Source: Candidatus Schekmanbacteria bacterium (GTDB taxonomy: Bacteria; SZUA-182). From it: a stretch of 62,964 bases of DNA. The notes under the pieces are model-generated. The model was not told the DNA's origin, did not search any database, and was given only the letters and a program-made list of their open reading frames with translations. The DNA is taken from the NCBI GenBank assembly GCA_016235675.1, contig JACRJN010000002.1:1-62964 (forward strand), written 5' to 3'. How positions within the stretch are numbered: the first letter of the stretch is position 1; each line of letters starts with the position of its first letter. Positions 51,994-52,203 of this stretch are shown here, piece after piece. The translations under genes were made by a program, and so were the position numbers.

Positions 51994-52203
51994 GGCTTGA
52001 GACCTGAGGGGCTGTGCCGCAACTCCATTTCTTGTCATTCCCGAACGCCTTTATCGGGAATCTGGTTTTAAAATCAACACCTTATCCCCGATAAAAGCAT
52101 TCGGGGATGACAAAATGAGACATATAAACAGTTGCGGCACAGCCCCCTGAGGCTTGAGGCAGGGGTGGGGAACGGGTTTCCCTCAGGTCTCAAGCCTCAA
52201 GCC
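51994..52203. repeat. Three-level nested composite: heptad arms, then family I, then family B (52034-52111)
   Basis: GGCTTGAGACCTGAGG GGCTGTGCCGCAAC .. [B] .. GTTGCGGCACAGCC CCCTGAGGCTTGAGG..CCTCAGGTCTCAAGCCTCAAGCC. Confidence 0.85.

Follow-up and report, generated by a model that had tools for sequence, protein, structure and literature searches.

The 62,964-bp contig JACRJN010000002.1 of a Candidatus Schekmanbacteria bacterium comes from a groundwater metagenome and was analysed here in its entirety (hereafter, the window). Its gene content is housekeeping only. The spacer between two of these genes, rpsT and the enolase gene eno, holds a stack of nested palindromes, L2, whose core is a dimeric element that we call family B. 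Stacks at other loci are centred on family B or on another element, family A, and we ask what these cores are and how they came to lie inside other palindromes. The components of L2, the genes on either side and the two copies of its scaffold are listed below (window coordinates; strand where one applies).

50659-51951, minus: eno, enolase
51972-51987: outermost left arm of L2, made of CGAGATA-type heptads; pairs with 52209-52224 (16 nt, 94% complementary)
51993-52010: H-family heptad arm AGGCTTGAGACCTGAGG(G), outer stem of L2; pairs with 52180-52197 (18 nt, 100% complementary)
52008-52024: left C arm GGGGCTGTGCCGCAAC(T); pairs with 52130-52146 (17 nt, 100% complementary)
52033-52065, plus: left half of the family B core, with TGTC head, ATTCCCGA/TCGGGAAT stem, 9-nt loop and CTGG tail
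52080-52112, minus: right half of the family B core, inverted, the tails of the two halves facing each other
52130-52146: right C arm (A)GTTGCGGCACAGCCCC, partner of the left C arm
52147-52204: side heptad hairpin together with the outer H arm on the right, CTGAGGCTTGAGGCAGGGG..CCCTCAGGTCTCAAGCCTCAAGCCT; shares homology with the body of the empty H hairpins listed further below
52209-52224: outermost right arm of L2, ending 8 nt from the rpsT stop codon
52233-52514, minus: rpsT, stop codon at 52233-52235
39618-39825, plus: stack L1, H around C around a B1 core; paralogue of L2
52579-52822, minus: stack L3, H around C around A (A at 52684-52755); the L2 scaffold inverted, adjoining the rpsT promoter (52566-52538)

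The stacks and their host hairpins

A first-pass annotation, made from the letters of the window alone, had described palindrome families nested in a fixed order at this and other loci. We found its sequences where it had placed them and, in L2, the CGAGATA arms as an additional outer layer that it had overlooked. Exact copies of the H arm AGGCTTGAGACCTGAGG lie at 39618, 51993 and 52579, with reverse complements at 3468, 39809, 52181 and 52799; the C 16-mer has seven exact copies in the window and zero variants with 1-3 mismatches, and the arms of the B core in L2 (52032-52069 and 52076-52113) are 38 nt long and 82% complementary. L1, L2 and L3 share a common scaffold consisting of AGGCTTGAGACCTGAGG, the C unit, the side hairpin and then CCTCAGGTCTCAAGCCT, inverted in the copy at 52580, and the linker ATGACA-AAATGRGA-GTTGCGG recurs. 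The heptad, C and core layers reported at 39619, 51994 and 52580 are thus all present, but these loci are paralogues of one composite, in one orientation or the other, and so do not amount to three independent observations of the layer order. The C unit had also been placed in the loop of the heptad hairpin; in all three C stacks it lies outside that loop, between two heptads of one arm (CCTGAGG^CCTGAGG), although the C stem does enclose the core. The predicted fold is multibranch, with an outer stem, a C stem around the core and a side heptad hairpin, and as single-stranded DNA (ssDNA) the three stacks fold with -69 to -80 kcal/mol (z -10 to -14).

rpsT is bracketed by two stacks of the same scaffold in opposite orientation (51972-52224 and 52579-52822). 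Its predicted promoter, TTGACA-17-TAAAAT at 52566-52538 on the minus strand, abuts L3, and promoter prediction returned none between L2 and eno.

Further stacks are built from other layers:

31004-31229: stack L4, G heptad hairpin around X arms (31039-31059 and 31169-31191) around A (31081-31156)
18046-18308: stack L5, F doublet around a ATGCCATTAAGTTAAGG palindrome (18077-18096 and 18213-18232) around A (18098-18179)
58274-58446: stack L6, locus-specific arms TTTTAGCCACGAATTGTACGAAA and TTTCGTGTAATTCGTGGCTAAAA around A (58320-58400)
7488-7692: stack L7, outer CACNGAG-type arms around inner H-like heptad arms around a single half of the B family (7590-7637)

L4, L5 and L6 bear out the earlier description of family A centred in G arms (31004), in F plus a palindrome (18046) and in locus-specific arms (58275), and L7 that of family B at the centre of two layers (7489-7693), seen there as a B-family single half. 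The L5 insert is placed in the left half of the F doublet, and the stack has a side hairpin at 18235-18282. In total, the 63 kb contain 11 A/B copies, all of them intergenic and 9 of them dimers. Outer inverted arms exceeded shuffle controls around 9 of the 11 cores: flanking arms scored 13-23 against shuffle means of 7-8, the observed score was reached by at most 1 in 300 shuffles, and about 1-2% of random window positions scored as high as the core flanks. Two of the copies taken to be solo, at 33891 and 42370, truly are, while those at 792 and 29535 have outer arms (763-775/890-902 and 29495-29520/29618-29641, respectively). The claim that A and B are always innermost holds inside the window but not elsewhere, since in Kuenenia one A pair encloses a gene and another A unit lies inside an A pair, and in the relative L120 two additional hairpins lie within an A loop. 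Nesting also occurs in families without A/B cores, for example around an F doublet at 26231-26401.

The heptad hairpins sit at gene ends. In 10/10 cases the start of the outermost heptad hairpin falls at -12 to +11 nt relative to where the co-directional upstream gene has its stop codon, and the ribosome-binding site of the next gene comes directly after the hairpin. The stop codons with adjoining heptad hairpins are at:

3484, 7704, 14897, 31234, 32829, 39617, 50659, 52233, 52826 and 60209

At two of them (3484 and 14897) the stop codon lies within the heptad array itself. Heptads such as CTTGAGG and ACTGAGG contain TGA (in arms at, e.g., 3459-3492, 11468-11488, 31197-31229, 50618-50655, 52181-52204 and 52799-52822) and, because 7 is not a multiple of 3, they can place stops in every frame: stop codons in all three frames were found in 6/13 first heptad arms, against 1.5% of random 28-mers. 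There are 21 heptad runs in the window versus 4.6 in shuffles, and each heptad hairpin family is built from a different heptad.

Identity of the A and B cores

What are the cores? In both A and B, two TGTC-headed palindromes face each other tail to tail, and the element begins with TGTCATT and ends with AATGACA. Each half runs from its head through stem, loop and second stem strand to a C-YRG tail, so that both families have the frame TGTCATT...AATC-YRG in common. Within this frame, B1 has a TGTC head, a ATTCCCGT stem, a GAAA loop, a ACGGGAAT stem and a CCAG tail; B2 has a stem of the same type and a 9-nt loop; and A reads TGTC, ATTGC..GCAAT, CTCAG, with an irregular inner part. Two published motif classes are built alike. 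In Neisseria, the sequence NTS (CGTCATTCCCGCGMAVGCGGGAATCYRG) contains the repeat dRS3, a target of a specific phage recombinase; SsnA, a 94-aa single-domain GIY-YIG protein, cuts NTS only as ssDNA, and Ssn-related motifs (SRM) flank ssn genes across phyla (PMC11893778). Each of the two B1 halves (39677-39704 and 39720-39747) differs from NTS by no more than 3 mismatches (25/28 positions match), and the frame of the left B half of L2 equals that of NTS, CGTCATTCCCGCG..GCGGGAATCYRG (PMC11893778). Moreover, 39677-39704 matches the published SRM pattern HGTCWYN(0-2)YYVSBRHN(0-5)WNVSBRGN(0-2)RNCYNB, with 1 hit in the window against 0.14 expected. The second class comprises the CGTC-tagged repetitive extragenic palindromes (REPs) of Di Nocera et al. 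(2013), which often have a TGTC head, stems starting with AT and CCA tails, form dimers and are present in Planctomycetes and other deep phyla (PMC3733652). In A. variabilis, T. roseum and H. neapolitanus such dimers lie within larger palindromes, empty targets being missing in two of the three species (PMC3733652). A and B have the head of a CGTC-tagged REP, its stem of 8-9 bp starting A-T, its short loop and its CCA-like tail, and like REPs they are high in copy number, extragenic and arranged as inverted dimers. By sequence, then, A and B belong to the class of CGTC-tagged REPs, dRS3, NTS and Ssn-related motifs, and very probably they are gene-less dimers of Ssn-type recognition hairpins.

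In the source run, k-mer depth reached ~140,000 for family A and 50,000-80,000 for B1 (repeat range 10,000-140,000, against ~10x for the genome). These depths are sums over the whole community rather than one genome, which makes the motifs common to much of the community.

In relatives, family A has a candidate partner gene. A 95-aa GIY-YIG gene of Ssn type, with PF01541 as its only domain, lies between family-A halves at five loci in four phyla (L001, L122, L125, L128 and L129), the hosts being Kuenenia, Jettenia, Nitrospirota, Dehalococcoidia and Bacteroidota. In Kuenenia (L001) the gene stands between TGTCATTGCGAGGGTC...GCAACCTCA and its inverted copy, and the whole unit stands between heptad arrays. 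The protein has ~8000 homologues at 73-80% identity across phyla; a PDB sequence search gave a distant UPF0213 match only, and a scan of NCBIfam gave generic GIY-YIG matches only, all sub-threshold.

Several other features were seen in the contigs that carry these units. At 17640-18090, the Kuenenia A-GIY-YIG-A locus has heptad hairpins around several other hairpin repeats; a second A-GIY-YIG-A unit, apparently degraded, lies inside another family-A pair at 21553-21880 of L001. An enolase of 635 aa with an internal duplication of ~200 residues is encoded at 10001-11908 (P0002) of the same contig, and this duplication may be real and in tandem, or else an artefact of assembly. In Jettenia (L128), an IS110-family (DEDD) transposase gene (3453-4463) lies directly downstream of the unit.

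Empty and filled states

The window also contains layers of the stacks on their own:

50570-50655: empty H heptad hairpin, alignable to the stack scaffolds except for a clean gap in place of the C unit
3413-3492: empty H heptad hairpin (H at 3405), with the TGA stop of the upstream gene (3484-3486) within the arm
11466-11542: empty G heptad hairpin with a loop of 33 nt, paralogous to the outermost layer of L4
24395-24517: empty F doublet, paralogue of the F layer of L5; a second empty F lies at 26263
763-902: X arms and A core alone, as inside L4

For both empty H hairpins (3405 and 50570), the gap against the stack scaffolds falls exactly at the C unit. The empty G hairpin has its arms and a left non-heptad flank, CCTTAAATAG, in common with the outer layer of L4. 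The loop of L4 holds the X-flanked A unit, which also stands by itself at 763-902; adding this unit to the empty G hairpin thus gives the filled G stack, and each of the two components exists separately. Judging by contig joints, the source run contains additional G hairpins with loops of 16 or 36 nt, at the depth of the genome.

Orthologous spacers in relatives show both states. In the syntenic relative L119, two spacers of 159 and 140 nt are without hairpins, compared with 312 and 282 nt in the window, and in L130 the clpC-bamA spacer, the site of L7, is a hairpin-free 45 nt compared with 276 nt. Between rpsT and eno, L120 and L121 have a solo family-A dimer only, and L120 differs from L121 by two extra hairpins inside the loop of that dimer and by two other hairpin indels. 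The empty/filled polymorphism that the first-pass annotation had named as a check was thus seen at orthologous sites, though not at strain resolution. Its idea of stepwise insertion is supported by the separable layers, inner units being present both inside and outside a particular outer layer, by the empty paralogues and by the additive G stack, but loops are not the sole entry point, as the C unit and the L5 insert sit in arms. Its alternative, a modular structured unit, holds in part: the C stacks share a scaffold, the segment from C arm through spacer to B head is multicopy in the source run, and composites also spread as wholes.

Between the close relatives L120 (1540-1632 and 1940-2280) and L121 (2295-2320 and 2630-2865), the differences include an inserted GTAG-like hairpin with TTATAG on either side and a multi-hairpin insertion of ~95 nt. 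L130, which is without all repeat families of the window, has a ~200-nt repeat of its own with GAACATGTTATGTTC ends in two spacers (5748-5972 and 18860-19070).

Searches with the C unit itself returned little. The 21-nt heptad-C junction gave nothing in the metagenome contigs scanned, and among the matches listed for the 16-nt C arm against genome contigs there was no multi-copy genome; they were chance singletons in coding regions of high-GC genomes and one plain hairpin in a Bacteroidales metagenome-assembled genome. CCTGAGG/CCTCAGG flanks the unit in L2 and L3, and L1 has a 5/7 match there; in a tandem heptad array such a repeat is expected anyway.

Origin of the stacks

How did the cores come to lie inside other palindromes? 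The reading that we favour, with a probability of roughly 0.6, is that dimers of Ssn-type hairpins inserted successively and that some of the resulting composites were copied. A and B would be the gene-less counterparts of the motif-gene-motif units in which motifs flank the ~95-aa GIY-YIG nuclease. Alone or already wrapped in a palindrome, they would have inserted one after another into pre-existing hairpins, mostly the heptad-repeat hairpins directly after stop codons in intercistronic spacers, and some composites of heptad, C and core would afterwards have been copied whole. Hairpins extruded from ssDNA may be the preferred or a tolerated target, an Ssn-type nick at the TGTC heads may start the copying or replacement of a unit, and cores may be swapped within one scaffold. 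Because the heads, beside which SsnA makes its cut, stand at the two outer boundaries of a tail-to-tail dimer on opposite strands, such nicks would bracket the unit. That movement is initiated by the GIY-YIG nuclease is nonetheless a tentative proposal and, on balance, a doubtful one.

Several points weigh against successive insertion of Ssn-type dimers: (i) scanned open reading frames (ORFs) of the 63-kb window gave no family match to GIY-YIG, REP-associated tyrosine transposase (RAYT), Y1 or any other transposase (a 554-aa ORF at 61095-62759 lay outside the scan), in line with the first-pass annotation, and the Kuenenia GIY-YIG protein had no tblastn match in the window; (ii) Ssn is a nuclease, the movement of motifs by Ssn has been offered only as a hypothesis (PMC11893778), and CGTC-tagged REPs are without a dedicated transposase (PMC3733652); as for a comparison with MITEs (non-autonomous DNA transposons), family A shares its ends with the A-GIY-YIG-A units, but their protein is a nuclease and not a known transposase; (iii) family A and the 9-nt-loop B copies fail the strict SRM pattern and keep only the TGTCAT head and the AATC-YRG tail; (iv) an empty C palindrome (0-30 nt gap) was absent from the metagenome contigs scanned, and some locus-specific outer arms have no known empty copy (the inner palindrome of L5, L6 and 29495); (v) no consistent duplication lies beside A/B, and target-site duplications are indistinguishable because the host carries heptad repeats of its own; and (vi) conserved proteins of the nearest relatives reach only ~73-78% identity, so that no intermediate states were seen at orthologous sites.

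Could palindromic repeats have been wrongly joined during metagenome assembly? Core interiors are metagenome-wide repeats, without unique coverage in the Logan contigs and covered there only by short multi-copy repeat contigs. However, independent Logan contigs of the source run reproduced the unique junctions between flank, heptad, C, spacer and core head on both sides of L1, L2, L3 and L4, with 0 differences at ~10x depth, and the architectures recur in the separately assembled Kuenenia genome, which makes misassembly hardly credible. The first-pass annotation had instead proposed that A/B are mobilised by an HUH/Y1 enzyme, either a RAYT or the TnpA of IS200/IS605, with the single-stranded loops of hairpins as its target. 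There are indeed GTAG-headed, RAYT-type REP doublets in the window (e.g., 35177-35238, 50118-50170 and 10285-10340), so that a RAYT is likely encoded somewhere in the genome. The heads of A and B are TGTC and not GTAG, however, the gene between family-A halves is GIY-YIG and not Y1 at all five loci, and the search for TnpA and RAYT genes, made on the window, gave no Y1 gene among the scanned ORFs. The proposal fits the coexisting GTAG families only; as the enzyme class behind A and B it is very unlikely.

Two further explanations concern the order and the purpose of the layers. If the stacks grew from the inside out, the core came first, a nick followed by fold-back or template-switch synthesis copied its flank in inverted form, heptads arose by slippage, and the outer layers are the younger ones. 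Such growth would account for locus-unique outer arms without an empty copy (18077-18096/18213-18232, 58274-58296/58424-58446 and 29495-29520/29618-29641) and for the missing empty C palindrome, which has its parallel in the two of three species without empty target palindromes in PMC3733652; a different heptad per hairpin family also fits local generation better than it fits one spreading element. Yet empty H, G and F hairpins exist, the G arms and the CCTTAAATAG flank occur in both an empty and a filled copy, and identical 17-nt H and 16-nt C arms around three different cores would be hard to make independently, so we consider inside-out growth unlikely. An ssDNA-nicking system that makes and extends heptad hairpins at gene ends (by nicking, fold-back priming and 7-nt slippage), the palindromes growing layerwise around a core, strikes us as quite improbable. 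If true, it would leave TGA heptads that stop translation in three frames, an insulated landing pad behind stop codons, and would be an undescribed route for de novo palindromes in bacterial genomes. The stacks might, alternatively, be RNA stem-loops that serve the host as terminators, attenuators or mRNA-decay barriers and look modular through selection for stable hairpins. Flush against stop codons in 10/10 cases, the hairpins fill the spacer up to the next ribosome-binding site; the folding of the stacks is extreme; L2 has T-runs after its closing stems when read from rpsT to eno; and expression of eno from the rpsT promoter would require transcription through L2, as the stretch from L2 to eno has no predicted promoter. 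That REPs downstream of genes act as RNA elements is also an established view (PMC3733652). But the stacks are absent from the corresponding spacers of all syntenic relatives, one scaffold holds different core families, no Rfam family matches, and the motifs cross phyla at an enormous metagenome depth typical of selfish repeats. A primarily host-serving role is an unlikely explanation of the stacks, although function and mobility are not mutually exclusive.

Several known systems come close to the stacks. Like the Ssn motifs (PMC11893778), the A/B halves have a (C/T)GTCAT head, an ATT-starting stem and a C-YRG tail, with B1 matching NTS in 25/28 positions; hundreds to thousands of intergenic copies, flanking of a ~94-95-aa GIY-YIG gene on both sides and clustering around genes (here, the two stacks that bracket rpsT) are also shared. 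They differ in that family A, with its ATTGC stem and variable inner hairpin, and the 9-nt-loop B lie outside the degenerate pattern, that the motifs form tight tail-to-tail dimers within up to three further palindromic layers, and that the host is a groundwater lineage, not a symbiont or pathogen, with the cognate gene not seen in the contig. The CGTC-tagged REPs (PMC3733652) share the CGTC-to-TGTC head, the 8-9 bp AT-starting stem, the CCA-type tail, dimers with variable spacers and the enclosure of dimers in larger palindromes; there, however, dimers are mostly head-to-head and have one enclosing palindrome, whereas here they are tail-to-tail, with two to four layers, heptad hosts, side hairpins and different cores per scaffold. 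REPINs and their RAYTs (Bertels & Rainey 2011, PMC3116915; Nunvar 2010) are likewise inverted doublets of a short palindrome, intergenic, of high copy number and not autonomous with respect to one gene that lies between copies of the same motif. A and B have a TGTC head and a GIY-YIG nuclease partner instead of GTAG and a Y1 transposase, and the GTAG-type doublets form separate families in the window. The BIMEs of E. coli (bacterial interspersed mosaic elements) and the NIMEs of Neisseria (neisserial intergenic mosaic elements, of which dRS3 is a component) also combine several short repeat families in recurrent intergenic orders, but are mainly linear, side-by-side mosaics, whereas the stacks here are concentric or branched. 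In Nostoc, small dispersed repeats (SDRs) are said, in work of Elhai et al. from 2008, to lie inside tandem heptamers and inside each other as single units of 21-27 nt; they reportedly differ from the elements here in sequence and phylum, and in not being built as dimers of hairpins that a nuclease recognises.

The motif class, its GIY-YIG partner, the dimers and the placement of REP dimers in a larger palindrome are already published (PMC11893778, PMC3733652), and the stacks are no new system but an elaborate case within a known kind of repeat, selfish or domesticated. New are how deeply the palindromes are nested and that the nesting branches, the heptad hairpins as recurrent hosts (here and in Kuenenia) and their position against stop codons, one scaffold with cores of different families, the empty/filled series within one genome, and a family-A variant beyond the published pattern. 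Abundant environmental palindromes (GTCATTGCGAG...CTCGCAATGAC and GTCATTCCCG...CGGGAATGAC), which yield spurious small ORFs in annotation, are hereby tied to the motif class of the Ssn GIY-YIG ssDNA nucleases, and motifs of this class are seen to pile up hierarchically within other hairpins. Paralogous empty and filled states in three host families offer a test bed for the movement of CGTC-type REPs and for the targeting of ssDNA hairpins. The stacks break assemblies, occupy nearly every intercistronic spacer in the window and are likely to affect transcript ends and recombination.

The window also holds several GTAG-headed families of REP or REPIN-like type, distinct from one another (10285-10340, 13280-13355, 16503-16665, 21280-21345, 33815-33875, 44470-44700, 50106-50179 and 53925-54022), which suggests a RAYT-type system elsewhere in the genome. 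One GTAG-headed REP doublet (~35177-35238) has GCAATCAGCCTTGACAAAG on both sides, at 35157 and 35239 (region 35157-35257), as a perfect direct repeat of 19 nt; a long target duplication may account for it, or else duplication of a promoter-like TTGACA segment.

Other genes of the window include a DUF362 gene, a gene for a 1404-aa homologue of acyl-CoA dehydratase activase, yidC, clpC, bamA and dnaX, together with a large-type signal recognition particle (SRP) RNA and two tRNAs. The ORFs at 42606-44387 and 46898-47182 had no family match. At gathering score, Rfam matched only the SRP RNA and one tRNA in the window, and at 51900-52900 it gave sub-threshold matches only, generic hairpin matches to miRNA precursor models and one scaRNA model. 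The best homologues of conserved proteins are 78% (enolase) and 73% (ClpC) identical, so the lineage is poorly sampled; the nearest named matches are from Kuenenia (66%) and Tectimicrobiota (~61%). An exact look-up of the enolase protein gave no recorded match. The heptamers had prompted the thought of a cyanobacterial origin, which gene content and the lists of homologues spoke against. Finally, a 97-nt direct repeat, 80% identical, lies in or beside an RHS/YD-repeat gene (47160-48782), at 46792-46888 and 47880-47976, which suggests duplication of an RHS tip or cassette.

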